Below, one piece after another: positions 2,066 through 43,668 of a stretch of 64,000 nt of DNA; within the stretch, counting starts at the first letter, position 1; the number at the start of each line of letters is the position of its first letter. A program made the translations under genes and the position numbers. The DNA is from Candidatus Enterousia sp. Lineage in GTDB: Bacteria > Pseudomonadota > Alphaproteobacteria > Rs-D84. The DNA lies in assembly GCA_045629645.1 (NCBI GenBank), contig JAZQRR010000034.1, forward strand, positions 10,996-74,995, written 5' to 3'. Under the pieces are notes generated by a model, which saw only the letters and a list, made by a program, of their open reading frames with translations, was not told the origin of the DNA and did no database searches.

Positions 2066-2104
2066 AAAAAAATATAAAAAATCCCGCGATTGCGGGATTG
2101 TCTT
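2066..2104. terminator. Bidirectional rho-independent terminator between convergent genes
   Basis: Hairpin cccgcgattgcggg (stem cccgc/gcggg) flanked by an A-run and a T-run. It lies between the +strand yqaA-like gene and the first minus-strand paralogue. Confidence 0.6.
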
Positions 2105-2526
2105 TATTCGACCCAAATATCAGCATCTGCCGTTGTAGAGCCCTGCCCACCAGATGGAATCTTACCAAAAATACCATCTGTTTTGGCCCTTGTAACCTGA
2201 CCATCTGCAATCTTGTTTGTTGTTACAGCAGCATCTTTAATTTTTGTTTCTGTAATTGCATCTGTTGCAATTTTGTCTTCTGTTACATTTTGACTCAAAA
2301 TTTTATTCGTTGTAACAGCATCATCTGCAATCATTGCATTTTGGATTTGACCGGTTGTCATCTCACCGGTTTCACCAGTAACGACCGCCATATTTGCCGT
2401 ATCAAACTTTTTCACATTTGCAACAATCGTGTCAACATAAGCCTTGCTGGGAACAGCTGCACTGGCCACACCAGTAACACCGACCAATAAAACAGCCACA
2501 AAAAAAGCAAAAACACATTTATACAT
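2104..2526 (-). CDS. Secreted Ala/Thr-rich repeat protein, paralogue 1 of a 4-gene tandem family
   Basis: Sec signal peptide (MYKCVFAFFVAVLLVGVTGVASA). The N-terminal motif AAVPSKAYVD is shared with the next two genes. There are repeated AVTTNKI / D-KIATDAI units. Confidence 0.55.
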   Translation of the reverse strand: MYKCVFAFFVAVLLVGVTGVASAAVPSKAYVDTIVANVKKFDTANMAVVTGETGEMTTGQIQNAMIADDAVTTNKILSQNVTEDKIATDAITETKIKDAAVTTNKIADGQVTRAKTDGIFGKIPSGGQGSTTADADIWVE

Positions 2527-2672
2527 ATTCTACATTCCCACTGTATTGTAAAAGTTGCCTTTACAATTTTTATAATACAGCACCCATTTTTTATATCAGT
2601 TACAACAAGTTAATTCAGCTTATAAAATCCTGCCGTATGTTGGGGAAAACCCCCAACATACAAAAACCAGAT

Positions 2673-3731
2673 TTAGCGTGTAATCAGTTCCCAACCATAA
2701 GTTGTAACTTCCTGACCTTCTGCGTTCTGGGAAACGACCTTGGTCAAAACATATGTACCATTGTCGGATACTGACGCACCAGCAATACCTGTTTCAAAGC
2801 CCTGCAATGCTTCAATCGCAGCATCCTGTGTTGCCTGAGAAGCGTCCAATGCATCTACCTTATCTTCATATGCGATTGCTGCATATTTTGCAGCAGCATC
2901 TGACGCTGCTTCAGAAATAGCATCAGCCTTAGCGGTATTAACATCAGTCGTTGTCGCCATATCAGCAGTCTTTGTCTGTAATGCAGAAATCGCATCATCT
3001 TGTGTTTTCTGGGAAGCATCAACTTCTGTTTTTGTATAAACACTACCAGCATCTGCCTTGGCATTAATCTTAGCTTCCAATGCGTTTGTTTGTTCTGTCT
3101 GAGATTGTGTGAATGTTTCTGTCAAAACATAACTATTCAATGCAGAAGCATCCGCCTTGCCTGCAACTTCTGTTGCCAAGTCTGTAACTGTCTGAGAATC
3201 TGCCTTGGCACCCAACACATCTGTCAATCCGTTAACCTGAGATTGTTCAATTGTTGCAGATGTTGTGATTAAACCGTCAGCACCTGTGATAACAACTTTA
3301 TTTTCATTCCCTGTACCCTGATCCTTGTCAACCTTGCCTGCAACAGCTGTATCTGTTGGCAAGGCACCCAAAGCTTCTTTCAAACCATCAACCTGATCTT
3401 GTGAAATTACAGTAGAAACCTGCACTTTACCGGTTGCATCAGTTGTTACAACACCGTTTGTTGTTGCTTGTGTTGCCGCAACCTTGCCATCAATTTGTGA
3501 CTGCAAACTGCTGTCCGCCGCCTTGTATGCTACTTCAATTGCAGAATCAGCTGCCTGACGATCTGTAATTTCTTGTGCCAATGCAGATTGTTCTGCCTTA
3601 GATTCCAAACTTGTGTTAATACCACCAACCAAGCCATCAACATATGCTTTTGATGTAACAGCCGCGTCTGCTGCACCCATTACTGTCAATCCCAAGATTG
3701 ATGCAAATATACCTGCTGTTAATTTTTTCAT
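2673..3731 (-). CDS. Secreted coiled-coil/tail-fibre-like repeat protein, paralogue 2
   Basis: Signal peptide MKKLTAGIFASILGLTVMGAADA followed by AVTSKAYVDGLV. SKAEQSALAQEITDRQAADSA and QSQVNGLTDVLGAKADSQTVTDLATEVAGKADASALNSYVLTETF are shared almost verbatim with paralogue 3. Confidence 0.65.
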   Translation of the reverse strand: MKKLTAGIFASILGLTVMGAADAAVTSKAYVDGLVGGINTSLESKAEQSALAQEITDRQAADSAIEVAYKAADSSLQSQIDGKVAATQATTNGVVTTDATGKVQVSTVISQDQVDGLKEALGALPTDTAVAGKVDKDQGTGNENKVVITGADGLITTSATIEQSQVNGLTDVLGAKADSQTVTDLATEVAGKADASALNSYVLTETFTQSQTEQTNALEAKINAKADAGSVYTKTEVDASQKTQDDAISALQTKTADMATTTDVNTAKADAISEAASDAAAKYAAIAYEDKVDALDASQATQDAAIEALQGFETGIAGASVSDNGTYVLTKVVSQNAEGQEVTTYGWELITR

Positions 3732-3765
3732 TTTTTTCTTCCTTTCTTTCGTTTTGTTTTTTTAT

Positions 3766-4950
3766 TTAGAATGATTCTGATTCACCTAATTCCAGTTTTA
3801 ACCATGTTGGTGTCTTAGAATTTTTCTGAACACCCAATACACATGTTGTTTCAGCACAATCTGCTGGAACCGGCAATGTATAGTTCATAACGGCCTGGGA
3901 TGTTGCCAAACCTGTCGCACCATCTGCGATTGCCGCATCCGCATTAACTGCGATTGTATCTGTTGCGTTATCAACCTTTACATATGCATCACCAGAAGTA
4001 TATTCAATCGCTTCAGCAGTCGCAGTAATTATATTTGTCTCGGCATCAATTTCAATACCGTCACCCGCGGTCAATTTTGCCTGCTTTTTATCAATTTCTG
4101 TTTGCAAGCTATTATCTGCATTTGTACGATTTGTAATTTCAGCAGACAAGTCTGTCTGAGACGCTTTTGCATCAACAACTAACGACAAATTGTCCAACGC
4201 TGTTTGTGATGCCTTGCCCGCAACTTCTGTCGCCAAATCTGTAACTGTCTGAGCATCTGCTTTGCCCGCAATCTGACCAGCTAATTCAGTATCTTTGTTT
4301 TCCAAAGCTGTAATTTTATTATCTTGTGCCAACTGACCTGCACTATATGTTTCTGTCAAAACCCAATCTTTCAAGTCAGATGTATTTGCCTTGCCTGCAA
4401 CCTCTGTTGCCAAGTTTTCTAAATCAGCCTGAGCAGCCTTGGCACCCAACGCATCAACCAAACCATTAACTTGCGACTGTTCAATCACTGCAGCCGCTGT
4501 AATTGCACCACTTGCATCTGTTACAACAACCTTGTTTGCATTTTCTGTACCCAAGTTTTTATTCAATTTACCTTCAATCACACCTTCGGACGCCAAACCC
4601 GATGTACGTTCGATAACATAGTCAACAACATTCTGCGAACTTGCATCTGTTGGAATTGTACCAACATAAGTCTTTTCCGCTTTGGCATTAATCTGAGATT
4701 GCAAACTACTATCTGCACTTTCACGCGCCGAAGCTTCCGAAGCAATCTGCCCAGACAAAGCCTGATCTGCCGCTGCACGATCTGTAATTTCTTGATTCAA
4801 CACAGATTGTTCTGCCTTGGATGCAACCGCCGCTACAACTTTGTCATCAACATATTTCTTTGATGTAACTTCAACCGCCATCGCAGGTGCCACAACACCA
4901 CCCAAGATAACAGCCATCACGCCTGAAAACATAATATTTTTGATTGTCAT
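3766..4950 (-). CDS. Secreted coiled-coil/tail-fibre-like repeat protein, paralogue 3
   Basis: Signal peptide, then VEVTSKKYVDDKV and SKAEQSVLNQEITDRAAADQAL. There are two internal copies of LATEVAGKA(N/S). The C-terminus is Cys-containing and ends ...LKLELGESESF. Confidence 0.65.
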   Translation of the reverse strand: MTIKNIMFSGVMAVILGGVVAPAMAVEVTSKKYVDDKVVAAVASKAEQSVLNQEITDRAAADQALSGQIASEASARESADSSLQSQINAKAEKTYVGTIPTDASSQNVVDYVIERTSGLASEGVIEGKLNKNLGTENANKVVVTDASGAITAAAVIEQSQVNGLVDALGAKAAQADLENLATEVAGKANTSDLKDWVLTETYSAGQLAQDNKITALENKDTELAGQIAGKADAQTVTDLATEVAGKASQTALDNLSLVVDAKASQTDLSAEITNRTNADNSLQTEIDKKQAKLTAGDGIEIDAETNIITATAEAIEYTSGDAYVKVDNATDTIAVNADAAIADGATGLATSQAVMNYTLPVPADCAETTCVLGVQKNSKTPTWLKLELGESESF

Positions 4951-9438: not shown

Positions 9439-10146
9439 ATGTTCAGGACAACATTATTTAAAATTGCACTTTTCATATATTTTACATTATGGTCACCATT
9501 ATTATTAATCGGACTGGTATCAAAAAGATTATCACGCAAACTGGTATATGCCGATGCCGCAGGTGTTTTGATTCTGGCACGCCTGATATGTAACATAAAA
9601 TATCAGGTACATTATCCAACAACCGAAGAAAACGGTATTCCAAATATGCCTGATGGCAACAAACGCGTTGACGGGAAATCCATTGTTGCTGCAAAACACA
9701 TGTCCATACTAGAAATTGCAATAATATCCAAAGTAATGCCAAAAACATTTTTTATAATGAAACGTGAATTGTTATGGATACCTATTTACGGATGGGCATT
9801 TTGGCGTTGTGGTATGCTGGGCGTAAACCGCGCCAAAGGAAAAACAAATATGAAAAAGCTGGCTGACGACGTTGAAAAACGCGTCTTGGACGGTTATACG
9901 CTGGTAATATTCCCAGAAGGAACACGTGCAAAGCCAGGTCAACGCATTCCTTTAAAACGCGGTTTATTGTTATTAGCACACACATTAAAATTACCTATCT
10001 TGCCGGTTGGCACAGACGCCGGCCTGTATTGGCCAAAGCACGGCCGTATGAATTCCGGCACTGCAAACGTATGGTTTGAACCATTACTGCCATGCAATGC
10101 ATCACTGGACGAAATCAGCGACGCAATTAATCGGCACAGCGCATAA
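9439..10146 (+). CDS. plsC: 1-acyl-sn-glycerol-3-phosphate acyltransferase
   Basis: Acyltransferase HX4D-type motif region (AAKHMSILE) and FPEGTRA motif. Confidence 0.75.
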   Translation: MFRTTLFKIALFIYFTLWSPLLLIGLVSKRLSRKLVYADAAGVLILARLICNIKYQVHYPTTEENGIPNMPDGNKRVDGKSIVAAKHMSILEIAIISKVMPKTFFIMKRELLWIPIYGWAFWRCGMLGVNRAKGKTNMKKLADDVEKRVLDGYTLVIFPEGTRAKPGQRIPLKRGLLLLAHTLKLPILPVGTDAGLYWPKHGRMNSGTANVWFEPLLPCNASLDEISDAINRHSA

Positions 10147-10176
10147 AAAAATCCCCAAATGGGGATTTTTTTATTT
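10145..10176. terminator. Bidirectional terminator between plsC and the nuclease gene
   Basis: atccccaaatggggat hairpin flanked by an A-run and a T-run. Confidence 0.6.
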
Positions 10177-13524: not shown

Positions 13525-13533
13525 TATAAAAAT

Positions 13534-13560
13534 AAAAAATCCGGCAATGCCGGATTTTTT
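13534..13560. terminator. Bidirectional terminator
   Basis: aaaaaatccggcaatgccggatttttt: a perfect hairpin flanked by A-run and T-run. Confidence 0.6.
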
Positions 13561-13909
13561 ACCATGATTTAAACGCACCTGAGCATTCTAGTGAACCGTT
13601 TGGACCAGCTGCACTAATAAAGAAGCTTAATACCGCGCCAATACTGAACAACAACACAAAACCAACCAACATACCAACGCCTTTTTCTTTAAATTTATCC
13701 AGCTTAACATCACCTGGTTTTGAAATAAATTCCCATGCCCATTGTGCAATCAAGAAACCCGCACCAATAAACGCCAATGTACGCAATGTTTTCAACAGAT
13801 CACCCAGCTCTTTAATCAAATTACACAGACCGTCATTCGCCATTGCCGGTGCAACAGATGCCATAATTGCAATCAGCGCAAAATTTATTTTATTTGTAAT
13901 TTTTTTCAT
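13559..13909 (-). CDS. Small secreted two-TM protein, VirB2/TrbC-pilin-like (tentative)
   Basis: Long signal peptide MKKITNKINFALIAIMASVAPAMA. The mature part has two hydrophobic segments (TLAFIGAGFLIAQWAW; VGMLVGFVLLFSIGAVLSFFISAAG) separated by a charged loop. This is the topology of T4SS pilins. Confidence 0.3.
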   Translation of the reverse strand: MKKITNKINFALIAIMASVAPAMANDGLCNLIKELGDLLKTLRTLAFIGAGFLIAQWAWEFISKPGDVKLDKFKEKGVGMLVGFVLLFSIGAVLSFFISAAGPNGSLECSGAFKSW

Positions 13910-14500: not shown

Positions 14501-15445
14501 ATGAAATATTCTGATATGGGATTAGTAAACACAAAACAAATGTTCAAAAACGCATTAGAAAAAAAATACGCAGTACCTGCATTTAATTTTTATAATATGG
14601 AAACCTTAACCGCTATTTTGAACGCAGCACGCATAACACACAGTCCCGCTATACTGGCCGTATCAGAATCCGCATTAAAATATATGGGGCCAGATATGCT
14701 GATTGGTTTGATACGTGGCGCAAACATACAACCATCAGAACAAATCGCATTACATTTAGACCATGGCACAAATCTGGATATTTGCGAAACTGCAATAAAA
14801 CTTGGTTTCTCGTCAATAATGATTGACGCCAGCAAACTGACATTTGATGAAAACATTGCTATTTCAAAAACAGTTGCAACCTTGGCACATAAACATAACA
14901 TATCAGTCGAAGCAGAATTGGGCACACTTGGCGGAATTGAAGATGAAAACACATTTGGCACAACCAACTATACCAAACCTGCCGACGTAGAAAAATTTGT
15001 ATCTGAAACAAATATAGACTCTTTGGCAATCGCAATCGGAACCAGCCACGGCGCATACAAACGAAAAACCGCCGATGAAAAATTACGCTTTGATATATTA
15101 AAAGAAATTGAACACAGATTACCATCATTTCCACTGGTTCTGCATGGCGCATCACAAATACCACAAAACCTGATATCAGAAATAAACAATTTCGGGGGAA
15201 AGATTTCTGGCGCACTAGGCATCGATGATGAACAACTGCGACGCGCCACAGAAATGAATATATGCAAAATAAATATCGACAGCGACTTGCGTCTGGCATG
15301 CACCGCAGGCATCCGTAAATCGCTGGCAACAAAACCTGAAAACTTTAACCCGCGCGAATACCTATCAACAGCAACAGAAACAATGACCCAAACATGTATA
15401 AACACAATCAAAAATATTATGGGCAGTGAAAATAAATTAAATTAA
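14501..15445 (+). CDS. fba: Class II fructose-bisphosphate aldolase
   Basis: YAVPAFNFYNMETL..., LHLDHGT and AIAIGTSHGAYK motifs of class II (zinc) aldolases. Confidence 0.8.
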   Translation: MKYSDMGLVNTKQMFKNALEKKYAVPAFNFYNMETLTAILNAARITHSPAILAVSESALKYMGPDMLIGLIRGANIQPSEQIALHLDHGTNLDICETAIKLGFSSIMIDASKLTFDENIAISKTVATLAHKHNISVEAELGTLGGIEDENTFGTTNYTKPADVEKFVSETNIDSLAIAIGTSHGAYKRKTADEKLRFDILKEIEHRLPSFPLVLHGASQIPQNLISEINNFGGKISGALGIDDEQLRRATEMNICKINIDSDLRLACTAGIRKSLATKPENFNPREYLSTATETMTQTCINTIKNIMGSENKLN

Positions 15446-15733
15446 AACGTTTTAGATATAAACAGTGTCGGCAACATAGTGTACAGAAGTTACATGAGTT
15501 GCCAGCAACGCTTTTAGATACGCCTTGTTATAAATAAATTAGAATGATTTAGATAAAAGTAGTGCCGGCAACGTAGTGTACAAATGCTACATGAGTTGCC
15601 AGCAACGCTTTTAGATACGCCTTGTTATAAATAAACTAGAATGATTTAGATACAAGTAGTGCCGGCAACGTAGTGTACAAATGTTACATGAGTTGCCGGC
15701 ACCGCTTTTAGATAAATTATTATAATTTATTTT
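15446..15733. repeat. Three tandem copies (~97-bp period) of a palindromic intergenic repeat element
   Basis: Unit: TTTAGATA-N-GTAGTGCCGGCAACGTAGTGTACAAATGCTACATGAGTTGCC(A/G)GCA(A/C)CGCTTTTAGATACGCCTTGTTATAAATAAA(T/C)TAGAATGA. It contains an 11-bp inverted repeat GTGCCGGCAAC/GTTGCCGGCAC around a 22-nt loop. Copy 1 is degenerate. The array ends at the efp stop codon. Confidence 0.85.
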
Positions 15734-16296
15734 GCACGTTCTACGTATTCTAATGTTTCCGTATTTACGACAATCTTTTCGCCTTGTTCAATAAACAAAG
15801 GAACCTGAACACGAACACCATTATCCAAAATAGCTGGTTTACCGCCACTGGACGAAACAGTCTGCCCCTTTAATGCAGGTTCTGTTTCTTCGACCGTCGC
15901 AATAACCGTCTTTGGTAATGAAATAGAAACTGGCTGACCTTCTACAAAGTTCGCCTTGACCACCATTTCTGGCGCCAAGAATTTCATCGCTTCACCCAAA
16001 GAATCAACAGCCATTGTAAACTGTTCATAATCAGACAAATTCATAAAGAACGCATCTGTACCATCTGCATACAAATACTGACAATCAAAATCTTCAACCA
16101 TCAGTTTTTCAACTTTATCTTCTGCACGCCAACGATCACCACCCTTGTTACCAGAATCAATATCACGCAAATCAGCCTGAACAAACGCGCCACCCTTGCC
16201 TGGTTTAACCTTGGTAATAGAAGTTACAGAATAACGTTTACCATTGTGTGAAATTACCCAACCCACACGCATATCATTTGCAATATAAGATGCCAT
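15727..16296 (-). CDS. efp: Elongation factor P
   Basis: 189 aa; KPGKGGAFV (conserved Lys loop) and EF-P domain architecture. Confidence 0.9.
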   Translation of the reverse strand: MASYIANDMRVGWVISHNGKRYSVTSITKVKPGKGGAFVQADLRDIDSGNKGGDRWRAEDKVEKLMVEDFDCQYLYADGTDAFFMNLSDYEQFTMAVDSLGEAMKFLAPEMVVKANFVEGQPVSISLPKTVIATVEETEPALKGQTVSSSGGKPAILDNGVRVQVPLFIEQGEKIVVNTETLEYVERAK

Positions 16297-16910: not shown

Positions 16911-16968
16911 AACTCCTTTATCAAACCAACAACAAAATCAAACCGCCATTTTGGCGGTTTGTTTTGTA

Positions 16969-23823: not shown

Positions 23824-23919
23824 ACAAAAAAAGTTAAAAAAACCATAATCAGCATTGATTATGGTTTTTTTTATGATAAATTAAACTTCCAATAAAAGAA
23901 GCACAGGAAAAAAAAACAA

Positions 23920-27551: not shown

Positions 27552-28013
27552 ATGTCAAATAAAGAAACAACAAATACAAAAACACAAGACAATTCTGTAT
27601 TAAAAACAACCTACAACATAAAATTCGGTTCATTCATGCCGAACGCATTTTTTGGTATGTGCTATGAAACACCAATGGCAGTTATAAAAATCAATGGTGT
27701 CGAACAAAAAACAAAGACTGGTTGGCTGGGTGCAGTCAATTTTCCAAATCCATGCGCATACGAAATGTCAGTACATCAAGAACAATTACAAACAGTCATG
27801 GGACCTGATATCGCGACAACAATCATCGAATACAAAGATTGTAAAACCAAGGATCCTGTTGCATTACTATTCCCAAATGCGTTACACGTATTTGACGAAT
27901 ACGAAAAAGATTACAGAAAACATTTAAACAACGCAACATTGAAAGACCTGGATTACGAAATGGCGATCCGTGTTGCATTGGTTGAAAAATATAAAAAGGA
28001 TAATCAACATTAA
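27552..28013 (+). CDS. Hypothetical protein
   Basis: 153-165 aa ORF with an RBS-like AAAGG upstream of the ATG at 27552. A terminator follows at 28012..28042. Confidence 0.4.
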   Translation: MSNKETTNTKTQDNSVLKTTYNIKFGSFMPNAFFGMCYETPMAVIKINGVEQKTKTGWLGAVNFPNPCAYEMSVHQEQLQTVMGPDIATTIIEYKDCKTKDPVALLFPNALHVFDEYEKDYRKHLNNATLKDLDYEMAIRVALVEKYKKDNQH

Positions 28014-28037
28014 AAAAACCGCCAATTGGCGGTTTTT

Positions 28038-30851
28038 TTATTCTTTTTTCACACACTTGCCATTGGTTAAATCATAACCATCAACACACTTGGTTATTTT
28101 ACAAGCCGACCAATCGCGCCCCGCCCAAGTTTGTGTCGCACTTGCCGCATTTTCTGGCATATCTGGACAAGTTCTGATTTCAGGGTCACATTTTTTTCCA
28201 TCTGTATTCTTTTCATACATATTATCACATGCAACAACCATACAATCAGTATAAGTTCCATCTGCTTTCAATGTCTGCTTTGCGCTTTTTGCATTAGTGA
28301 TAGCACACTCAACCTCTTCCTTTAAACACTGGTTATTAATATTCTTATAACCTGTTCTACATTGTGAAATCACACAATCTCCCCAATTACTGCCGTTCCA
28401 AGTCTTTACTCCTTGGTCACCGTTATTATCCAGGCACCCCCGTGTTTCCGGCACACATTTATTACCATCTAAATTGTAATGATCTTTACATGTTGTTATC
28501 ACACAGCTGCCCAACGTACCATTTTCTATGGTTGCATACGCTTCTGCAACACCAACCAGATCTCCTGAACAATCAACCTTGGTTCTTTCTTCACATTTAC
28601 CATCTTTCAAGATATAACCATCATTACATGCTGTTGCAACACAAACACCATTCGAATTCTTGTAGCCAGATTTTGCATTAGATGGCAATTCACCCAACTT
28701 GCATCTTTGTTCTGTTGAAATATCTGCAGACCAGTTACGGATATCTGCAACACCAGCATCCAACAAACATTGTTCACGCATAGACGCTGAATTACCAGAC
28801 GCATTCAACGCAATATTTGCTGCACCAGAACCTGTACCATTCAAAATTTCATTTAATGTTACAACATTACGGCATGTATTCTTGGTGTAATCTTGATTAT
28901 TCGAACAACTGTTGCTATCCGCCACATCTATAACTGCCTTGAATTGTGCCGTCGAAGGATTACAAATCATTTCTTCATAACAATGCGGAACATTTGCAAT
29001 CTGGGCACAGTATGTTTTGATACGTGCATCAGGCCAGTTTGGTTCGCTGTCTGCTGTACTTTCATAACAGTCATAAATTTCACTTAAACATTCGTTAAAG
29101 TTCGTACCAGCCTCAATCGCAGCAGTCAAAATTTCTTCTTCTTCTTCTACTGCAAATTCCAGACGTTTTTGTTGCAAGGCTTGTTGTGCTGCAACCTTTT
29201 GATACGCAATATTTTGTGCAGTCGCACGCAGTTGTTCACCATACAAATCGCAATCTGCATTGGCGTCCAACAAATACTTATTCATAATACTGCGACGTGC
29301 ATCCGCAACAGGACCACGCAGATTTGAATAAGGATCCCCAGATGTTGTTGTATAACCAAAACATGACGCACTGGCATTTATAGAACCTGTTGATGTTGAA
29401 CCACGTTCATTCAACGCAATTTCACCAGACGCATTAACATCAATTTTGGAATTATAATTGAACGGACAATTAGAAGACTGACCGTTTGCACACTTGCCAC
29501 CGAACGATGCTGGCGAACCACAAGATTCATAAATACCATTAAAGCAAGAATCCAAGACACGACCACAAACTTCGTTATGCGCATGCGCAAACAGTTGATA
29601 CCCCCATGTATTTGCCAATGTATCTTTGGATTCTTCTGTAACTGACAAAGAAGACCCCAGCCCAGCCAATCCATTAACAACACCAGAAACACCTTCGAAC
29701 GCACTTAACAAAGAATCGTCATTATCTGTCAGGATTGTGATTGTATTTTCTTTGGCCTTGGCCCATGCCTGCAAGTTCGCCAAAATATCAGAACCACTAC
29801 CATTTAAATTCTTGATATCAAAACCAAAATTGTTATTTGAACAGTATTCAGGTTGATTACAAGAAGAAACAACACTTCCATTATTAAATATACCATGCGA
29901 CGAACACCAATCTACCGCCTCTTGCGAAGAAACGCCATGTTCATTTGTAACCTCGCGCCAGGAAACACAGTTCATAACCTGTTCTGCTTCGGTCAACTGG
30001 AACGCATCAGAAACATCTTTACCCCTGTTTGCAATCAACAATGCCAATTCACCAGACGCCTTGATTAATTCTTCATTTGCTGTTTCCAACGCTGCTTCTG
30101 CTTCTGCAAACGCGGTGACACGACCAGCGCATGCACAACGACGCTGTGCCTGATTACGTGCAGTACAAATTTCGTCCATACACGCATAATAAGATTCCAA
30201 ACAATTATTAAACGCATCTGTTGAAATCAAACCGGTTGTTGAATCGATAATATTTGAATAATTCCCCGTATATAATTTATTTGTCAGATAAGAATAAGTT
30301 GTACCACCGGAACTCTTAGAACCACGAATCGCACTACCCTGCAAAGAAACACGTGCAGCATCTGAGTCAACCGCTGTACGTGCACGCACATTACGATTAT
30401 TTGCCGCAGTTGTTCTGTTTGTAACAACCGCACTGCGCGAAACTACATTTCTTTTATTTTCTGTTTGTGCACGGGATGCAGTTGCACGTGAATTTGTTGT
30501 ACGTGACGCAACCGCACGTGTTGCCGCAGCACGAGTTGCATTTGCACGTGCATTACTTGCACGGGCTGTTGCTGTACGGGCAGATATTGCTGGTGTTGCA
30601 ACCGTTGTTCTGGCGACATTAGCACGCGCAGTCGCACGATTACGTGGACTTTCACGCAATGCCGCGCCACGCGCATTACCAGCCGCAACCTGCTGTTGCA
30701 TTAAAACCATCGGGTCATTAATTGGCGCAATTGGATCTGCCAACACAGTACGCATTGACACAAATGTCGAACAAACCAAGAACGCCCCCAACAACAGACA
30801 CGCTGTTCCAATTGCATTCTTAACAGAACTTACGATTTTTTGACTTATCAT
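28038..30851 (-). CDS. Large secreted cysteine-rich modular protein (937 aa)
   Basis: The signal peptide is followed by an Arg/Ala/Thr-rich low-complexity repeat (TARASNARANATRAAATRAVASRTT...). Then come a coiled-coil segment and about five C-terminal ~50-aa Cys modules of the pattern W-G--W--C-I--C--GY-L----C. Confidence 0.6.
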   Translation of the reverse strand: MISQKIVSSVKNAIGTACLLLGAFLVCSTFVSMRTVLADPIAPINDPMVLMQQQVAAGNARGAALRESPRNRATARANVARTTVATPAISARTATARASNARANATRAAATRAVASRTTNSRATASRAQTENKRNVVSRSAVVTNRTTAANNRNVRARTAVDSDAARVSLQGSAIRGSKSSGGTTYSYLTNKLYTGNYSNIIDSTTGLISTDAFNNCLESYYACMDEICTARNQAQRRCACAGRVTAFAEAEAALETANEELIKASGELALLIANRGKDVSDAFQLTEAEQVMNCVSWREVTNEHGVSSQEAVDWCSSHGIFNNGSVVSSCNQPEYCSNNNFGFDIKNLNGSGSDILANLQAWAKAKENTITILTDNDDSLLSAFEGVSGVVNGLAGLGSSLSVTEESKDTLANTWGYQLFAHAHNEVCGRVLDSCFNGIYESCGSPASFGGKCANGQSSNCPFNYNSKIDVNASGEIALNERGSTSTGSINASASCFGYTTTSGDPYSNLRGPVADARRSIMNKYLLDANADCDLYGEQLRATAQNIAYQKVAAQQALQQKRLEFAVEEEEEILTAAIEAGTNFNECLSEIYDCYESTADSEPNWPDARIKTYCAQIANVPHCYEEMICNPSTAQFKAVIDVADSNSCSNNQDYTKNTCRNVVTLNEILNGTGSGAANIALNASGNSASMREQCLLDAGVADIRNWSADISTEQRCKLGELPSNAKSGYKNSNGVCVATACNDGYILKDGKCEERTKVDCSGDLVGVAEAYATIENGTLGSCVITTCKDHYNLDGNKCVPETRGCLDNNGDQGVKTWNGSNWGDCVISQCRTGYKNINNQCLKEEVECAITNAKSAKQTLKADGTYTDCMVVACDNMYEKNTDGKKCDPEIRTCPDMPENAASATQTWAGRDWSACKITKCVDGYDLTNGKCVKKE

Positions 30852-31021: not shown

Positions 31022-32293
31022 TTATTGAACACCTACACTAAATTCATCCCCCCAACCGGCGACAGACTGCCCACCGATTACACAATTAATATCTTCAAAA
31101 CCATCTTCTATCTGATGTTTTTTGATAACACTGCTGGTAATCAGACCACCTGCAGTTCCCAAAACAACCCCAGCGATGGAATCCGACGCCAAACGTGCAG
31201 TATTAAACTTACCTTCTTCGTCTTTCCAAACACTTACTTTAAATCCAGATTCAATATTCTTCAAAACGTTTTCAGCCGCCAAAATTGCCTTACGCGACGC
31301 CGATGTATCCACCGGCGTTGCTGCTTCAACAACAACTGTTACCTCATCGCTTTTTGTACACATAGCATTAACTAAACCTTGAACAGCTGCTCTCGTTTCA
31401 TTAAATTTTCCAACTGTCAAATCTGACTTTTCACACAACGCCTCAAACTTAGAAATTTCCACAAGAACATCCTGCGATGCCTTACATTGCACCTTCCAGG
31501 CACTAATCGTAACCCCAACACTGTCATCACATTGATACGATGCGTTCTCTTCACCCTTGACATTACAATAGCCCTGCAAACCATCATAAGAAAATTCTTG
31601 ATTTTGACCGACACAAACACATTGTGAACCGTCCCACTTTGCAACCGATAACGACAACGAACAACACGCCTTACCCTCTGCCGTTGTACGCGAATCTACG
31701 CAAGAAGTTTTATTTTCCCCTGGCTTTGGAGCTGGCATTGGAGCAGGCTTTGGAGCTGGCATTGGAGCTGGCTTTGGATCTGGCACAGGCTGTGTCTGCC
31801 CAGGTTTCTGACCATGGTCATAATAACAAAAAGCATCCTTAGAAGTAGACGTATAATACTGACTAGCCATATGAACCTTCGCCAACGAATTCGGAACATA
31901 AATATCATAATTACCATGTGTAGTAATTAACCGTTTACCATCAGTAGTACTACACTTGTTTAAACTAGTAGCGCCAACCGAGGCCCATGCATTTCCACCG
32001 CTGGTCGAACATCGATATATACCCACATCATCTTTTGTTTCATTATCCCACACATGAACACCTGTAATAACCGCAAAAGCACCTTCTTCACAAGAACCAT
32101 CTTGAAAGCCACCACAAATCAAAGCCAAACCATTGCTATCTTTGTAATCAGCCAGCGTAGGAAACAAATATTCATTAGAAGACTTCCACGAACTCCACCC
32201 AATATTTAACACTTTTGAACAATTATAGTTATCTGCCACTGCACCGGATACACAACCAAACAAAACCAATACAGACAATAAAATCTTCTTCAT
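31022..32293 (-). CDS. Secreted cysteine-rich protein with a Pro-rich (PAPKPAPM) linker repeat
   Basis: Signal peptide MKKILLSVLVLFGCVSGAVA. The DNA carries the 24-bp repeat ccaaagccagctccaatgccagct, encoding PKPAPMPAPKPAPMPAPKP. There are ~20 Cys residues. Confidence 0.55.
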   Translation of the reverse strand: MKKILLSVLVLFGCVSGAVADNYNCSKVLNIGWSSWKSSNEYLFPTLADYKDSNGLALICGGFQDGSCEEGAFAVITGVHVWDNETKDDVGIYRCSTSGGNAWASVGATSLNKCSTTDGKRLITTHGNYDIYVPNSLAKVHMASQYYTSTSKDAFCYYDHGQKPGQTQPVPDPKPAPMPAPKPAPMPAPKPGENKTSCVDSRTTAEGKACCSLSLSVAKWDGSQCVCVGQNQEFSYDGLQGYCNVKGEENASYQCDDSVGVTISAWKVQCKASQDVLVEISKFEALCEKSDLTVGKFNETRAAVQGLVNAMCTKSDEVTVVVEAATPVDTSASRKAILAAENVLKNIESGFKVSVWKDEEGKFNTARLASDSIAGVVLGTAGGLITSSVIKKHQIEDGFEDINCVIGGQSVAGWGDEFSVGVQ

Positions 32294-32381
32294 AGTCCCT
32301 TCCTATATATTATATCCCTGTAATTCTATCACAAAAAACAGTTTATTCCAAGCAATAAAAAAGCCCCAAACAGGGGATTTT

Positions 32382-33662
32382 TTATTTATATTCACCAATC
32401 AACTGTTGAATCTGGGCGGACAAAACCAAATCTGACGCTTGTTGTTTTTCAATCTGTTTGATTGCATACAAAACTGTTGCATGATCACGACCACCAACAA
32501 AATTACCAATTTCTGTCAAAGACAAACCTGTAACATTCTTTAATACCACCATCATAATCTGACGCGCCAAAACCAATGAACGACTGCGACCATTACCACA
32601 TACTGCATCATAAGACACAGCCAACTTTTCACACATATCTTTAACCATCGCAGATGGTGTTTTTGTTTTCTGCAATGTATCTGCCAACAAACGCTGCGCA
32701 ACAGCCATATCAACCGCAGCACCCATCAAATCTGTATATGTTTTAATTTTTGTTGCAACACCTGCAATTAAATGACCATCATTTGCAATACGTGACGCAA
32801 TCGCATTCGCAACATCCATCGCAACACCTGCGCGCTGTAACATAACTGTTTTAACATGTGCATTTGGCGCACAAACATCTGCAACCAAACCAGACGCCAA
32901 CAAAGATTGTGCACGTCTGTCAAAACCTGTCATATTGTTTGGTGCCGCATTTGAAGTCAAAACAATATTCTTGCCTGCGTTACGCAAATCAACAACCAAT
33001 TGCAAGAATTCATCTGTTGAGGCTTTTTTACCAGACAAACTTTGAACATCATCCAAAATAAATGTATCGCAATTACGGCAAAAATCTTTGAACGCGAAAA
33101 TATTATGTTCTTTCAAGCTGCGTGTAAATTCAGAAACAAACTGTGCGCCACTCATCTTAACAACACGCCCCTGGGCCGCACCTGCGATACATTCTGTTAA
33201 CAATGTTTTACCGCAACCTGCCACACCATAAATAAACAGCGGAGAGAAAGGAACCTTACCCGCCGCCAATTTTTTGCACGCAGACAAAACAAACAAATTT
33301 TCATCACTAGCAACAAACGCATCAAACGCAATAGATGAATCTTGGGACGCAACAACTGGCGCATAAGCCTGTGCCTTGTTATCATTTGCAACTGCCGCAA
33401 CAGACTTAACCGCTGCACTGCGAACAACAACGCGCGCATCTAAACCAAATTCATGTGCAACAGACGCAATTACATTACCGTGAACACTGTTGATAAAATC
33501 TGCTGAAAATTGATTTTGCGCACCCAAAACCAATGTATTATCTGTAACATCAAATGTTAATGGTGCAATCCAAGAAGAAAAACTTGCAGAATCTATTTTT
33601 GCGGCAATGGCCCCCTTGATAACGTCCAAGTTAGTCATTTGAATTTTTGCCACTGTCTGCAT
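32382..33662 (-). CDS. dnaA: Chromosomal replication initiator DnaA
   Basis: AAA+ Walker A GVAGCGKTLL and the C-terminal DNA-binding helix (TEIGNFVGGRDHATVLYAIKQIE). An RBS AAGGAG sits 9 nt upstream of the ATG. Confidence 0.9.
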   Translation of the reverse strand: MQTVAKIQMTNLDVIKGAIAAKIDSASFSSWIAPLTFDVTDNTLVLGAQNQFSADFINSVHGNVIASVAHEFGLDARVVVRSAAVKSVAAVANDNKAQAYAPVVASQDSSIAFDAFVASDENLFVLSACKKLAAGKVPFSPLFIYGVAGCGKTLLTECIAGAAQGRVVKMSGAQFVSEFTRSLKEHNIFAFKDFCRNCDTFILDDVQSLSGKKASTDEFLQLVVDLRNAGKNIVLTSNAAPNNMTGFDRRAQSLLASGLVADVCAPNAHVKTVMLQRAGVAMDVANAIASRIANDGHLIAGVATKIKTYTDLMGAAVDMAVAQRLLADTLQKTKTPSAMVKDMCEKLAVSYDAVCGNGRSRSLVLARQIMMVVLKNVTGLSLTEIGNFVGGRDHATVLYAIKQIEKQQASDLVLSAQIQQLIGEYK

Positions 33663-34104
33663 GTCGTTTTCTCCTTTCCTTCCCTAAAAGAGTTTCCTGC
33701 CCAACTTACAAGGTTGCAAAAGCCACCCGCACAAAACTTAAATATTCTTGTTCAGAACATTTATTTTTATTGCCTACTTCTACTCTCTCGCTATTTGGGT
33801 TGGACACTCATGTTTAACTGATTCTTGTAAATCTGATGATTTTGAAACCAGACCCAGAACCCAGCACAAGTTTCCAAACCACAGACACATCTTTATTTTT
33901 CATCCCAACAAAGACGTATCTTTTTTTAAGCCCCAGTCACAAAACCAAGCCTTAAATTTTGATTGATTTTTTTATCTCTCAATCGGTTTTGGATACGTCA
34001 AATAATTTATAAGATAAAATTCGATTTACAACAAAATATTAACCAAAAAACGAAGATTTATTTTTTGACAACGATTCGTTTTTCTGGCTGTTTTCCGCCA
34101 TTTT

Positions 34105-34137
34105 GTATATACACTGTATATACACTGTATATACATA
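34105..34137. repeat. Three tandem copies of the perfect 10-bp palindrome TGTATATACA (11-bp period)
   Basis: The sequence is tgtatatacac tgtatatacac tgtatatacat. It lies in the dprA-dnaA intergenic region, immediately 3' of dprA. Confidence 0.8.
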
Positions 34138-34144
34138 AAAAACA

Positions 34145-36858: not shown

Positions 36859-37119
36859 GTGGCAAATCATAAGTCATCTGATAAAAGAATTTTGGTAACT
36901 GCCAAAAAGAACGCAATCAATACTGCACGTCGCAGTGCGGTGAAAACCGCCACTAAAAAGGCATTGGTTGCAATTGAATCTGGCGACAAGGCTGCTGCAA
37001 CAACAGCAATGCGCAACGCAGAAAGTAAAATCATGAAATCTGCTGGTAAAATTATGCCAAAGAAACGCGCAGCTCGCAAGATTTCACGTTTGGCGAAAAA
37101 AATGTCTAAAATGGCATAA
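36859..37119 (+). CDS. rpsT: 30S ribosomal protein S20
   Basis: 86-aa basic protein; MANHKSSDKRI...AKKNAINTARRSA is a typical bS20. Confidence 0.9.
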   Translation: MANHKSSDKRILVTAKKNAINTARRSAVKTATKKALVAIESGDKAAATTAMRNAESKIMKSAGKIMPKKRAARKISRLAKKMSKMA

Positions 37120-37132
37120 CCAAGAAGTCTTA

Positions 37133-37168
37133 TAAAAAAAATCCCCGATTGGGGATTTTTTTTATATT
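37133..37168. terminator. Rho-independent terminator after rpsT
   Basis: aaaaaaaatccccgattggggatttttttt. Confidence 0.6.
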
Positions 37169-37180
37169 TTTATAATCCAA

Positions 37181-37429
37181 CAGACGTTTAGATATCTTGC
37201 CAACACCGCTTGTAGATGTGCTTTGCCATAAATAAATTAGAACGATTTAGATACAAGTAGTGCCAGCAACGTAGTGTACAGAAGTTACATGAGCCATCGG
37301 GACCGACCGTAGATATGCCTTATTATAAATAAATTAGAATGATTTAGATAAAAGTAGTGCCGGCAACGTAGTGTACAAATGCTACATGAGTTGCCGGCAC
37401 CGCTTGTAGATAAATTATTATAATTTATT
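37181..37429. repeat. Second locus of the same palindromic repeat family (2-3 copies, first copies degenerate)
   Basis: It contains ...TTAGAATGATTTAGATAAAAGTAGTGCCGGCAACGTAGTGTACAAATGCTACATGAGTTGCCGGCACCGCTTGTAGATAAATTATTATAATTTATTTT, near-identical to the 15.45-kb locus. It ends exactly at the stop codon of the secretin gene. Confidence 0.85.
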
Positions 37430-39064
37430 TTAGTTCAGAGGCGCACCCCAATGCTGCTGAATACTACGTTCTACATCCATTGGGCTAACCAAAACTTGCG
37501 GTGTCAAGATAACAACCAATACTTCACGGGTTGCAGATGTTTCGCGAGAACCAGACAATGCCATAAAGTCAGGGTCGCCTAAACCATATCTGGTGTCTTC
37601 ATTGGTCTGTTTTTCAAAACCAGAAACAACCAACATTTGACCAGATTCCATAATAACTTCTTGCATAAAGCTACGTTCTTCTACTTCTGGTAATTGCAAT
37701 GTTACTTCGCCGATTGTTTGGGTTGACATACGCAACAATTCACGCACAGACATACGGAACAACAGCAAAATCTTGCCATTTTCTAAAACATTTGGCAACA
37801 ACTGCATTGTAAAACCTGTTTCCAAATCATCTTGATCAACAGTACTTGATTCAACAGTTGTAAAGTTTCTGGATTCAAAACGTTTAATATACCCTGTTGT
37901 ACGTGTATTGCTGACCGGTGCGACACGATTACTGCGGGTTGTTACACCAACATTTGTAACCAAAGATACCTTGCCCTGCTTTGCTAATGCCTCTATCAAA
38001 GCACTACTGCCTGCGACACCAGACAATGAACCGTTCATAATATCATCCGCGCTATATGCACCATCAACAGTTACGCCATTTTCTACGTGTGTTGCCCCAG
38101 TCAACGCCGAAACAGCATTAGACAATACCGCAATATTCATAGAACTTGCTTCTGTTGATGCCAAATTATTCTTTGGATTTGCAACAATATTTAATCCTGA
38201 TGTAGAATTAATTGCGGCCGCCAAATTCAATCCGAACGCAGAATCATTAGATATAGTAACCTGCAAAACCTTGACATCAATTGTAATTAATTGGCTAAGA
38301 CGTTTATTTTGTTTTTCAATATACTCCCCAACACGCGCCAGAACAGATGGAGCTGCCGTTACAGTTATTGTCCCTAAACTGCGAGACACGGTAAAATCTG
38401 CATTTTCACTTTTTCCGATAATTGAAGAAATTGCATTTTCTACTTCATCCCACTCTTTCAATGTAGATTCCAACGAAACTTCGTTCGCGTTATCTGTTGA
38501 TACAGATGTTTGATATGCAACCTCGGTTCCCAGGGCATACAAAGTAAATGTTTTTGTTTCTGTTTCATAGAATACAATCGAATTTTTATCATAATACCAC
38601 AATAAATCCAAATCAGTCGCAACCTGAGACAATAAACCAGACAATTTTCCTGTATAAGCAACATTAACTGTCTTGCGCAATTTATCAGCTGCGATTTGAC
38701 TGTCTATTTTCACAGGAATACCTGTTACAGAATAAATATCATTTGCCAACACCTGCAATGAAACAGGTTCGTTCAACAAAATTGTAACACCTGTATCTGA
38801 TTCAAATTGTTTTGGCAAATTATTACGATGTTCCAAAACAGTAGATTTATTTCCCAGCCAAATTCCTTCGGACATAGAAACAGTATCACCCGTAGCAACC
38901 TTGGCACGTGGATTTTTCGCCATTTCAAACGCATCATACGCATTAATAAAATCCTGATCAACGGATGCCGCAACCTTGGCAGATTCTTTTTTTGCACACG
39001 CTGTTACCGCCACCAGAACTAACGCACACAAACCAAATAACTTGATAGCTTTTTTCATATTCAA
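37430..39064 (-). CDS. Secretin-family outer-membrane lipoprotein (type IVb pilus TcpC/BfpB/PilN-like)
   Basis: Lipobox LVAVTAC. The C-terminal secretin domain motif is VVSGFEKQTNEDTRYGLGDPDFMALSGSRETSATREVLVVILTPQVL (the G-G--------G-P-L--IP-LG-LF------R-EL-I-ITP pattern). 544 aa. Confidence 0.7.
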   Translation of the reverse strand: MNMKKAIKLFGLCALVLVAVTACAKKESAKVAASVDQDFINAYDAFEMAKNPRAKVATGDTVSMSEGIWLGNKSTVLEHRNNLPKQFESDTGVTILLNEPVSLQVLANDIYSVTGIPVKIDSQIAADKLRKTVNVAYTGKLSGLLSQVATDLDLLWYYDKNSIVFYETETKTFTLYALGTEVAYQTSVSTDNANEVSLESTLKEWDEVENAISSIIGKSENADFTVSRSLGTITVTAAPSVLARVGEYIEKQNKRLSQLITIDVKVLQVTISNDSAFGLNLAAAINSTSGLNIVANPKNNLASTEASSMNIAVLSNAVSALTGATHVENGVTVDGAYSADDIMNGSLSGVAGSSALIEALAKQGKVSLVTNVGVTTRSNRVAPVSNTRTTGYIKRFESRNFTTVESSTVDQDDLETGFTMQLLPNVLENGKILLLFRMSVRELLRMSTQTIGEVTLQLPEVEERSFMQEVIMESGQMLVVSGFEKQTNEDTRYGLGDPDFMALSGSRETSATREVLVVILTPQVLVSPMDVERSIQQHWGAPLN

Positions 39065-42738: not shown

Positions 42739-43668
42739 ATGACACAACAATCAACATTATCCAGATGGAACATTTTTGCACCGTTGAAATTTTCTGGTCT
42801 GTTTTTTATTTGTACAACAGCAATATCATTTTTATATATGTTGATTTTTAAATCTTTTTCACACGCAAACATAATACCCCAAACACCACTGATGACAATA
42901 ATATTTATCTGTTTTATTGCGTGCGCATATCACATGTTCAGACGATTACCACGTACACAACTGGACAAGAAATCTTTTATTACATTACACACGTCACAAA
43001 CACTTATCATTTCAACAATATTTATATTAACAACATTATTATTAGCCAATAACTTTAACAGAATAATATATAACCTGATAATACTAGAATCACAATCTCC
43101 TGTATTATTCTTTTGCACTATCATAATATCTGCACTTATAATTTTATATATAACCGGCATATCTCTTTCTAATCTATACGCCAAGTTCTGGCGCGTACGC
43201 GCGTTTAACATCCCTGCATGGAAAATCGTATGCAGTATGCCTTTTGGATTCGCAGGACTGTGGTCTGCTGGTTATTTCTTAGATACACCAAACAAAAAAA
43301 ATCATACTGTAACGGCAAAAACAAAATGGTTCTCTGACCTGATAAACAAAATAACCAAGAACACAAAAACATTAATATTTGCATTTGTTACAACAACATT
43401 GATATCTGGATTTTTCTTTGGTTTAAATGCAGTATTATTAACATTAATGCTAGCTACAATATTTGGAATATGCACGCTAAACAAAGATAAACAACAATTT
43501 GCAAAAAACATATCTGGCAAATATTGCAACGCAATGATTATCATAAACATTGTTTTAATTACTGTCTTTGCAGTCATATTTTCAACCAGTTCACCAACCA
43601 ATACGACATCTGTTACAAACTCAGAATCAATAACCATCACAGACACAAACACAGGGGACGCAAAATGA
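42739..43668 (+). CDS. Hypothetical polytopic membrane protein (occupies the position where sufD would be expected)
   Basis: 309 aa with ~8 predicted TM helices and no SufD motifs. Confidence 0.45.
   Translation: MTQQSTLSRWNIFAPLKFSGLFFICTTAISFLYMLIFKSFSHANIIPQTPLMTIIFICFIACAYHMFRRLPRTQLDKKSFITLHTSQTLIISTIFILTTLLLANNFNRIIYNLIILESQSPVLFFCTIIISALIILYITGISLSNLYAKFWRVRAFNIPAWKIVCSMPFGFAGLWSAGYFLDTPNKKNHTVTAKTKWFSDLINKITKNTKTLIFAFVTTTLISGFFFGLNAVLLTLMLATIFGICTLNKDKQQFAKNISGKYCNAMIIINIVLITVFAVIFSTSSPTNTTSVTNSESITITDTNTGDAK

Follow-up and report, generated by a model that had tools for sequence, protein, structure and literature searches.

Enterousia gene-end hairpins: a lineage-restricted family of long hairpin repeats lying against gene 3' ends

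What is the tandemly repeated palindrome of ~97 bp that separates two pairs of convergent genes in a 64,000-nucleotide stretch of a Candidatus Enterousia sp. genome, and why does it abut the stop codons of the genes beside it? The window examined here is the whole of that stretch (contig JAZQRR010000034.1, positions 10,996 to 74,995 of the forward strand). A preliminary description, made from the sequence of the window, likened the repeat to REP, RPE and Correia-type mini-elements and proposed that it might encode a structured RNA or act as a bidirectional terminator, an RNA-stability element or a recombination hotspot. We find that it belongs to a previously undescribed, lineage-restricted family of long hairpin repeats, which we name the Enterousia gene-end hairpin, and that the family obeys a strict strand polarity, a feature absent from the preliminary description.

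Array architecture and the hairpin family

Tandem Repeats Finder places array A at 15432-15714 (period 97, 2.9 copies, 90% matches) and array B at 37197-37412 (period 97, 2.2 copies, 75% matches). A 44-nt core, GTGCCGGCAAC-N22-GTTGCCGGCAC, occurs three times at up to 3 mismatches, where 100 shuffles give an expectation of 0, and a blastn comparison of the array with the window finds no third locus; the two loci first described, with three units at the first, are thereby upheld. So are the convergent flanking genes, identified with Pfam: array A lies between a class II fructose-bisphosphate aldolase gene (fba, 14501-15445, plus strand) and the gene of elongation factor P (EF-P; efp, 15727-16296, minus strand), and array B between the gene of ribosomal protein S20 (rpsT, 36859-37119, plus strand) and a secretin gene (37430-39064, minus strand). 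Both arrays close with the same 24 nt, AGATAAATTATTATAATTTATTTT, at the stop codon of the minus-strand gene as reported. The efp stop codon (15727-15729) and the last Lys codon lie inside this end of array A, and the secretin stop codon starts at 37430, immediately after it in array B. The arrays and their parts are listed here, with scores from the covariance model (CM) introduced below; L-numbers, here and later, label compared loci or relatives.

15432..15736, plus strand: array A, three head-to-tail units between fba and efp (Tandem Repeats Finder; CM matches 15440-15531, 15550-15617 and 15626-15736)
15440..15531, plus strand: unit A1, degenerate, with arms GTGTCGGCAAC (15465-15475) and GTTGCCAGCAA (15498-15508); CM 40.3 bits
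15550..15617, plus strand: core of unit A2, with TAGATA, helix P2, apical module, P2' and TAGATA, the 3' arm carrying 2 mismatches; CM 58.7 bits over model positions 22-89
15626..15736, plus strand: unit A3, complete and gene-proximal, arms 15629-15669 and 15692-15732; CM 108.5 bits, 41-nt inverted repeat
15647..15652, plus strand: 5' TAGATA of unit A3, partner of 15709-15714 through tandem G.A/A.G (alignment columns 22-27 and 84-89)
15670..15691, plus strand: apical module GTAGTGTACAAATGTTACATGA of unit A3, conserved, the '22-nt loop' of the preliminary description
15709..15714, plus strand: 3' TAGATA of unit A3 (alignment)
37187..37434, plus strand: array B (Tandem Repeats Finder and sequence)
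37187..37218, plus strand: truncated unit remnant ahead of array B, with TAGATA and 3' arm only; present also in relatives L088, L090, L091 and L093 (sequence)
37248..37315, plus strand: unit B1, a chimera whose 5' arm is of stem type 1 (GTGCCAGCAAC) and 3' arm of stem type 2 (GCCATCGGGACC), the arms non-pairing (copies compared side by side)
37324..37434, plus strand: unit B2, complete and gene-proximal, arms 37327-37367 and 37390-37430; CM 115.6 bits, inverted repeat

The 5' AT-rich arm of unit A1 overlaps the last codons of fba (ENKLN*) and its stop, and the efp stop codon falls within the 3' arm of unit A3. The window is 92% coding, and its three longest gaps are the two arrays and a stretch of 312 nt at 43212-43523 that has no open reading frame (ORF) of at least 60 aa and no Rfam match.

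An inverted-repeat scan together with alignment shows that one unit is a single hairpin of ~104 nt with 41-nt arms, made up of an AT-rich outer helix (P1), two opposed YAGAUR boxes, a GC-rich helix (P2) and an apical module with the consensus GNAGUGUA...UACAYRAG. The array period of 97 bp is shorter than the 104-nt hairpin because adjacent units share a shortened P1. What was first described as an 11-bp stem around a 22-nt loop is really a stem with 41-nt arms, and most of the loop is probably an extra short helix. The perfect 11-bp inverted repeat itself holds for the gene-proximal units (15659-15702 and 37357-37400) and fails in the middle unit of array A (15562-15605, 2 mismatches), in the chimera (37260-37304) and in unit A1, a first copy that is degenerate as had been stated and scores only 40.3 bits. 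The copies of TTTAGATA previously taken for flanking direct repeats are rather pairing partners, being the YAGAUR boxes opposed in the hairpin through tandem G.A/A.G mismatches.

The suggestion that the unit is long enough to form a structured RNA is strongly supported by both covariation and predicted folds. In the ungapped alignment of 30 distinct units on which the CM was built, 95% of cells are paired and 32 of the 39 long-helix pairs have changed on both sides; none of 500 shuffles did as well, and sliding the partners by 1-3 columns reduced pairing to 39-47%. A larger alignment of 72 distinct forward-strand units has 93.3% of its cells paired and double (compensatory) changes at 35 of 39 pairs, figures that lean towards structure because this alignment was fitted to the CM. 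The sequence of P2 differs wholly between subfamilies with its complementarity kept. In the YAGAUR box the outer positions covary (U-A, U.G, C-G) and AGAU is invariant; the alignment puts tandem G.A/A.G mismatches at the central G-A steps. We count at least 18 stem types, some of them common to many contigs, with consensus sequences that differ at a mean of 8 of 13 positions around a nearly constant apical module.

Within that module an inner helix GUGUA/UACAU probably forms in unit A3. Non-canonical apical variants, found at loci selected by EF-P identity, keep the pairs G-U or G-C, U-A, G-C, U-A and A-U (C-G once), and one compensatory and one wobble change tentatively suggest that GUGUA and UACAY pair in a short inner helix, with a variable loop as its cap. 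Several other views of the module were discarded. An 'invariant loop' proved partly an artefact of choosing loci by loop sequence, and was corrected with the EF-P-identity loci; a K-turn in the apical internal loop fails on inspection, the G-A step that it needs being G-U. Frames opened by the ATGs of the module continue into the variable stem, which rules out a conserved peptide, and the stop-free frames that cross units were taken for short antisense or chance frames and not for coding sequence.

The family extends well beyond the window. A scan of species-representative genomes with the core sequence recovered 16 stretches in 8 records, whose titles read Candidatus Enterousia sp., uncultured Alphaproteobacteria, uncultured Rickettsiales or Alphaproteobacteria bacterium; a scan of metagenomes with the apical 22-mer recovered 61 stretches, and a scan of viral contigs gave 0 matches. 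Over the 0.51 Mb of sequence retrieved, the CM matches 186 times at ~96 places. Exact matches to the apical module number 5 in the 64-kb window and 1 in a 935-kb contig (that behind L060). According to the passages of one paper that name the genus, genomes of the host lineage, Ca. Enterousia of the order Rs-D84, measure 0.75-1.0 Mb, and those same passages do not mention such a repeat (PMC12306168).

The preliminary description had reasoned that two copies only, absent from relatives, would suggest a local duplication in place of a dispersed mini-element. Copies occur instead at about 100 places in Ca. Enterousia and Rs-D84-type metagenome-assembled genomes and gut metagenomes, and the genome, metagenome and CM scans agree on a dispersed family, present at numerous loci across many related genomes. 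A local segmental duplication or a chance palindrome, which might be entertained given that the window itself has two loci only, is exceedingly improbable: chance is expected to yield 0 matches, ~100 places lie elsewhere, and the covariation stands far above that of the shuffled and slid controls.

One subfamily sits between rpsR and the next gene in L022, L028, L039, L057, L060, L063 and L068, where it adjoins a small conserved GGGA-loop-TCCC hairpin. The sole exact apical match in the 935-kb contig of L060 is a unit of this subfamily.

Polarity at stop codons and terminator positions

The two strands of the element are not equivalent, and in both arrays the better-folding one is the plus strand of the window. 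Helix cells on the folding strand hold 70 G.U against 16 A.C and 42 G.A/A.G against 2 C.U; position 59, in the apical module, is exclusively C or U and faces G; and the CM score is about twice as high as on the complement. When both strands were folded as RNA, the plus strand was the more stable in both gene-proximal units, at -45.1 kcal/mol for unit B2 and -40.9 kcal/mol for unit A3 (z -7.5) against -35.7 and -35.0 for the complements, an advantage of 6-10 kcal/mol. The subfamily of rpsR-rplI and related loci is neutral in G.U against A.C (13 vs 10) and still rich in G.A (29 vs 0). We read the asymmetry as selection because a mutational bias of the kind seen in GC skew would be expected to produce the opposite, A.C on the folding strand. 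Selection thus acts on the structure formed by the strand that is antisense to the neighbouring gene.

That neighbour is placed with great regularity. Downstream of the folding strand lies the 3' end of an opposite-strand gene in 69 of 72 arrays (p ~1e-17); on the upstream side there is no preference, with 35 gene starts and 28 gene ends. The stop codon falls from -12 to +9 nt of the last paired base in 76 of 81 gene-proximal units, being inside the helix in 49 of them, which bears out the abutment on gene 3' ends first described. Insertion within genes, as in RPE, was not seen at these loci; the overlap that some genes have with the element is limited to their last 1-4 codons. The AT-rich outer arm encodes the ...NKL(N)* C-termini of fba (15431-15445), trxB and an rlmE-like protein (L006, L025), so protein C-termini have been reshaped by the element. 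The abutted genes, which recur from species to species and whose names beyond the Pfam-confirmed flanks in the window were read from the sequences, include yebC (8), trxB (7), efp (6), Flg_new-type surface proteins (6), acyl-CoA-synthetase-like genes (5), secretin (5), rpsR (5), an 834-aa protein (4) and dnaN (3), as well as ftsK, secB, rpoA, rho, rlmE and RNase J. Units of the rpsR subfamily have the start codon of the next gene, read as rplI, ~50 nt (12-66 nt) past their other end and therefore lie inside an operon.

A second polarity concerns replication. On the folding strand 55 of 57 loci have a negative GC skew. The replication component, the skew left once the coding-strand component is split off, has a mean of -0.13 and is below zero in 35 of 39 loci, a larger share than the 63% that gene-strand bias would give (p ~2e-4). 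The skew suggests that the folding strand, which is C-rich, is usually the leading-strand template. In the window itself Pfam identifies dnaA at 32382-33662 (minus strand), and GC skew stays between -0.03 and -0.32 over all 64 kb with no switch of sign, so the replication origin is apparently not beside dnaA.

The places that the element occupies are those of terminators. Convergent genes in the window commonly share a perfect hairpin, with A-tract, GC-rich stem and T-tract, that overlaps both stops, and the relevant hairpins are these.

10143-10174, 13533-13561, 23836-23871, 28006-28045 and 32354-32386, no strand assigned: plain terminator hairpins (inverted-repeat scan)
10143..10174, no strand assigned: 'empty site', the bidirectional terminator common to an acyltransferase gene and an SNase-like gene (inverted-repeat scan)
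16935..16965, minus strand: 'empty site', a plain terminator hairpin between dnaN and ppa (inverted-repeat scan)
37131..37166, plus strand: rpsT terminator, of ordinary A-tract, GC-stem and T-tract form, upstream of array B (terminator and inverted-repeat scans)

Those at 10143-10174, 13533-13561 and 28006-28045 separate convergent genes, overlapping or abutting both stops, and form very compact bidirectional terminators; with such stop-overlapping hairpins shared between genes, lying flush with a stop codon is the normal placement of a terminator in this genome. Comparison of orthologous spacers, which the preliminary description had recommended, finds the element where the window has a plain terminator at two sites. 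The dnaN-ppa spacer holds two units in L050 and one each in L031 and L053, all flush with the dnaN stop, and in these filled sites the homologous flank resumes past the T-rich end; the acyltransferase/SNase-like spacer holds two decaying units in L027. Neither a terminator remnant nor a target-site duplication was seen at the two filled orthologous sites. The element thus occupies terminator positions, and it resembles bidirectional intrinsic terminators in its stop-flush position, its A-rich 5' flank and T-rich 3' flank, and its substitution for them at the two orthologous sites. It differs in architecture, with a stem of ~40 bp and a 22-nt apical module where those terminators have a 5-12 bp stem and a 3-8 nt loop, and also in the AU-rich helix beside its U tract, its conserved boxes and its strand-asymmetric stability.

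These observations invite the idea of a polar terminator or insulator, in which the selected molecule would be the RNA hairpin made by transcription of the folding strand, which runs antisense to the gene and meets replication head-on. G.U and G.A would make the hairpin strong in that direction, C.A and U.C mismatches would permit partial read-through in the sense direction, and leading-strand genes would be shielded. One idea would then cover three polarities (the folding strand, the flushness with the opposite-strand stop and the C-rich strand); it also suits the fba-efp pair, which has no other terminator, the position inside rpsR-rplI, where sense read-through is needed, and the replacement of plain bidirectional terminators at two sites. 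We nevertheless consider it rather unlikely. Both strands fold very stably (-35 vs -45 kcal/mol); the helix beside the U-rich tract consists only of A-U, G.U and G.A, which is poor for intrinsic termination, and the terminator scan is negative in the arrays; about half of the places have a divergent gene start upstream, so no source of antisense transcription is evident; units decay at some loci; and the conservation of the apical module and the GA box is left unexplained.

Turnover within species and comparison with known classes

Loci retrieved through exact identity of the EF-P and S20 proteins, independently of the element sequence, reveal how fast the arrays change. Between the window and L082, whose efp genes are 99.3% identical, the first unit is orthologous and the two gene-proximal units are of stem type 1 in the window and type 2 in L082. 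In a group with efp at least 98.8% identical, arrays of the forms X, X-Y, X-Y-X and Y-X-Y-X occur. At rpsT (98.5-99.6% identical), L088, L090, L091 and L093 are without the whole of unit B2, 97 nt bounded by TAGATA, and the unit orthologous to the chimera B1 is an intact type 2 unit in these four and in L010, which places the swap point in the apical module; in other S20-selected genomes the rpsT terminator stands alone and the neighbour is another gene. In 6 of 6 arrays the best-scoring or best-preserved unit is the gene-proximal one. Units are thus gained, lost and recombined within species, with crossovers in the apical module and unit boundaries at TAGATA, and the proposed recombination hotspot is substantiated by this gain and loss of units and by the swaps of half-units. 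At the left end of the efp-fba spacer in L079-L081, L085 and L087 there is a collapsed unit that retains P1, the CAGATA and TAGATG boxes and the base of P2 and has no apex; it looks like a palindrome-mediated internal deletion.

Among known repeats, REPs are defined as stem-loops of 20-40 bp with a GTAG or CGTC tetranucleotide at one end; they lie for the most part 3' of genes, where the ORFs are unidirectional or convergent, and form dimers and arrays (PMC3733652). The Enterousia element has dispersed intergenic copies mostly downstream of genes, several subfamilies and clusters, and so shares with REP, BIME and REPIN elements the placement of intergenic palindromes mainly 3' of genes, the several subfamilies per genome, and the dimers, mosaics and arrays; those elements are likewise believed to be transcribed and to function as hairpins in RNA, and keep their complementarity despite sequence differences between lineages (PMC3733652). 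It differs in being a single hairpin of ~104 nt with 41-nt arms, in place of a 20-40 bp stem-loop or an inverted REP doublet, in being most conserved at the apex and the internal GA box and not in the stem, in its strict polarity at the stop codon, and in that none of the 70 window ORFs is a RAYT (Y1 HUH transposase) gene. GTAG does open the apical module, and it also stands 5' of P2, in stem type 1 only.

RPE, ERIC, Correia and other MITE-like repeats are imperfect palindromes of ~100-150 bp, dispersed in small or compact genomes, that can be co-transcribed and can add coding sequence. Like them, our element supplies coding sequence, namely the ...NKL* tails of fba, trxB and rlmE; in contrast to RPE, ERIC and Correia, it shows no within-gene insertion or target-site duplication, commonly forms head-to-tail arrays and has a fixed orientation, a separation that is drawn from descriptions of those families and not from alignment of consensus sequences. 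P1 might serve as the terminal inverted repeats of a MITE; the window has no transposase, and there is no plasmid or phage match. Of the likeness to REP, RPE and Correia elements first proposed, then, the dispersed, structured mini-element stands, and the REP tag and size, the MITE target-site duplication and the RPE-like insertion within genes do not.

Other searches returned little. At the gathering score Rfam finds only 2 tRNAs in the window, and at E<=10 the array has only sub-threshold, chance-level matches, the best of them to microRNA-precursor models and far below the gathering score. There is no tRNA or tmRNA at the array loci, no relative on plasmids, and in phages a single 36-nt AT-rich chance match.

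A closer geometric parallel is the attC site. In sedentary chromosomal integrons attC sites of 57-141 bp lie behind, and often overlap, stop codons; they also have their folding strand antisense to the gene and on the leading-strand template, variable stems, and homogeneity of sites within a species (PMC5371416). The element has this geometry, and the resemblance is one of geometry only. The attC R''/R' cores, RYYYAAC...GTTRRRY, are absent from the hairpin base, which reads AAATAAATTAGAAT ... ATTATAATTTATTT in the consensus of 30 units. The element has neither R/L core boxes nor conserved extrahelical bases, and it abuts dispersed core housekeeping genes (efp, yebC, trxB, dnaN, rpsR, rpoA, rho), with no cassette array and no integrase in the window.

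Conceivably the element could nonetheless work as an attC-like site, a folded single strand on which a putative recombinase or HUH enzyme would bind at the apical module and make its cuts at the two TAGATA boxes, brought together by the hairpin, so that units were excised from and inserted behind gene ends. The shared antisense folding strand, stop overlap and leading-strand template (PMC5371416) would follow, and so would the variable stems with conserved boxes and the finding that near-identical genomes differ by a unit of exactly 97 nt with TAGATA on both sides. We judge this improbable, given the missing cores at the hairpin base, the abutted genes, which are dispersed core housekeeping genes and not promoterless cassettes in one array, and the lack of any gene in the window for an integrase or a HUH enzyme; the gain and loss of units is explained equally well by slippage or unequal crossing-over, given a tandem repeat of 97 bp.

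The covariation is also of the kind expected of RNA, with G-C, G.U and A-U interchanging at the same pairs and tandem sheared G.A, and each unit could in principle be its own transcription unit in a family of trans-acting structured small RNA genes, the apical module serving as a protein-binding or target-pairing surface. A -10-like TAGAAT or GATAAT with an invariant A and T lies in the 5' arm, and CTTGCA, read by eye, lies 14-19 nt upstream of the -10-like hexamer in some units. The promoter scan, however, finds no sigma-70 promoter in either array, and a -35 element at 15-19 nt spacing from the -10-like hexamer occurs in just 1 of 80 units. Since that box is inside the P1 helix, a transcript starting after it would omit the 5' arm of P1, which yet covaries. 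With copy numbers from ~1 to many per genome, gain and loss within species, chimeric or decayed upstream units and no Rfam family added to this, we hold the small RNA explanation to be very unlikely. CCCCTTGC was rejected as a -35 element, being present in a minority of units only and at variable spacing. A C-rich motif (CCCAACCCCTTGCnnnGG) or CGTGATTAGCG occurs just upstream of units in L018, L025, L027, L033, L035, L036, L046 and others, where it takes the place of the 3' half in truncated upstream units or precedes first units; it too is unconvincing as a -35.

Proposed propagation and role of the element

The reading that we favor, with a probability of roughly 0.5, is that the Enterousia gene-end hairpin is a REP/REPIN-like, structure-dependent repeat that would be spread and homogenised at the DNA level and would double as the transcript-end hairpin of the gene that it abuts. 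Propagation and homogenisation would proceed by gene conversion or unequal recombination, possibly helped by a putative protein that recognises the folded single strand through the apical module. If only copies whose arms still pair keep spreading, this would account for perfect complementarity despite fast turnover. Once settled, a hairpin with its A-rich and U-rich flanks could act at the transcript end of the abutted gene as a terminator, an attenuator or a 3' stabiliser. The orientation that persists would be the one with the better-folding strand on the leading-strand template, where less single-stranded DNA is exposed, an orientation documented for the attC sites of chromosomal integrons (PMC5371416).

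A number of observations weigh against this reading. Concerning mobility, none of the 70 window ORFs, which are housekeeping or unannotated, is a transposase, integrase, reverse transcriptase or HUH gene; the direct repeats at the helix ends of 71 units match a permuted control in length and so give no target-site duplication; and a terminal GTAG or CGTC tag is absent, the units ending AAAT.../...ATTT. The genes efp, yebC, trxB, secretin and rpsR carry the element across many species, and long-term vertical retention, possibly for a host function, fits as well as mobility. Concerning recognition, the genome and metagenome scans both demanded the apical sequence, and in 10 genomes selected by EF-P identity 8 terminal units have apical modules off the canonical consensus, so that the module is less invariant than the first sample implied. 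Concerning orientation, gene polarity and replication polarity are confounded, with 3-4 informative loci of weak skew; at three Flg_new loci, whose skew is near zero or positive, orientation still goes with the gene, and replication alone does not explain why it is the 3' end and not the 5' end that is flush with the stop. Finally, a test for canonical intrinsic terminators (GC-rich stem of 5-20 bp, loop of 3-8 nt, T-run within 2 nt) finds none in the arrays, its only site being the rpsT hairpin upstream of array B; with this negative scan and one subfamily lying inside the rpsR-rplI operon, a role as an efficient terminator is no more than putative.

A bolder and rather doubtful proposal would have the element be a gene-end tag: a folded single strand, of DNA or antisense RNA, recognised by a putative protein through the apical module and the GA box, that replaces intrinsic terminators behind leading-strand genes in a reduced genome. 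Such a tag might be an attC-like site outside integrons, or a one-way terminator against antisense, head-on transcription.

Some further features of the window lie apart from the arrays. Between the 3' end of dprA and the upstream region of dnaA, at 34101-34138, TGTATATACAC is tandemly repeated 2.9 times and also forms a 19-nt palindrome. At 31720-31785 a 12/24-bp tandem repeat, CTGGCATTGGAG, runs for 5.5 copies inside a 423-aa ORF (31022-32293, minus strand) that has no Pfam match. Three adjacent ORFs at 2104-4950 (minus strand; 140, 352 and 394 aa), also with no Pfam match, have signal-peptide-like N-termini ending AAV(T/P)SKAY or AVEVTS and may be a paralogous surface-protein family.

The rules of placement and orientation that govern dispersed palindromic repeats such as REP, REPIN, RPE and Correia elements are poorly understood, and the Enterousia gene-end hairpin offers an unusually clean case, with genomes of 0.75-1.0 Mb, a near-absolute stop-codon rule, a clear folding strand, filled and empty orthologous sites, and turnover within species. 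The family makes it testable whether such repeats act as terminators, whether their polarity stems from transcription or from replication, and whether a dedicated protein binds the folded strand. The geometry that it shares with integron attC sites bears on how genes gain such sites at their 3' ends.

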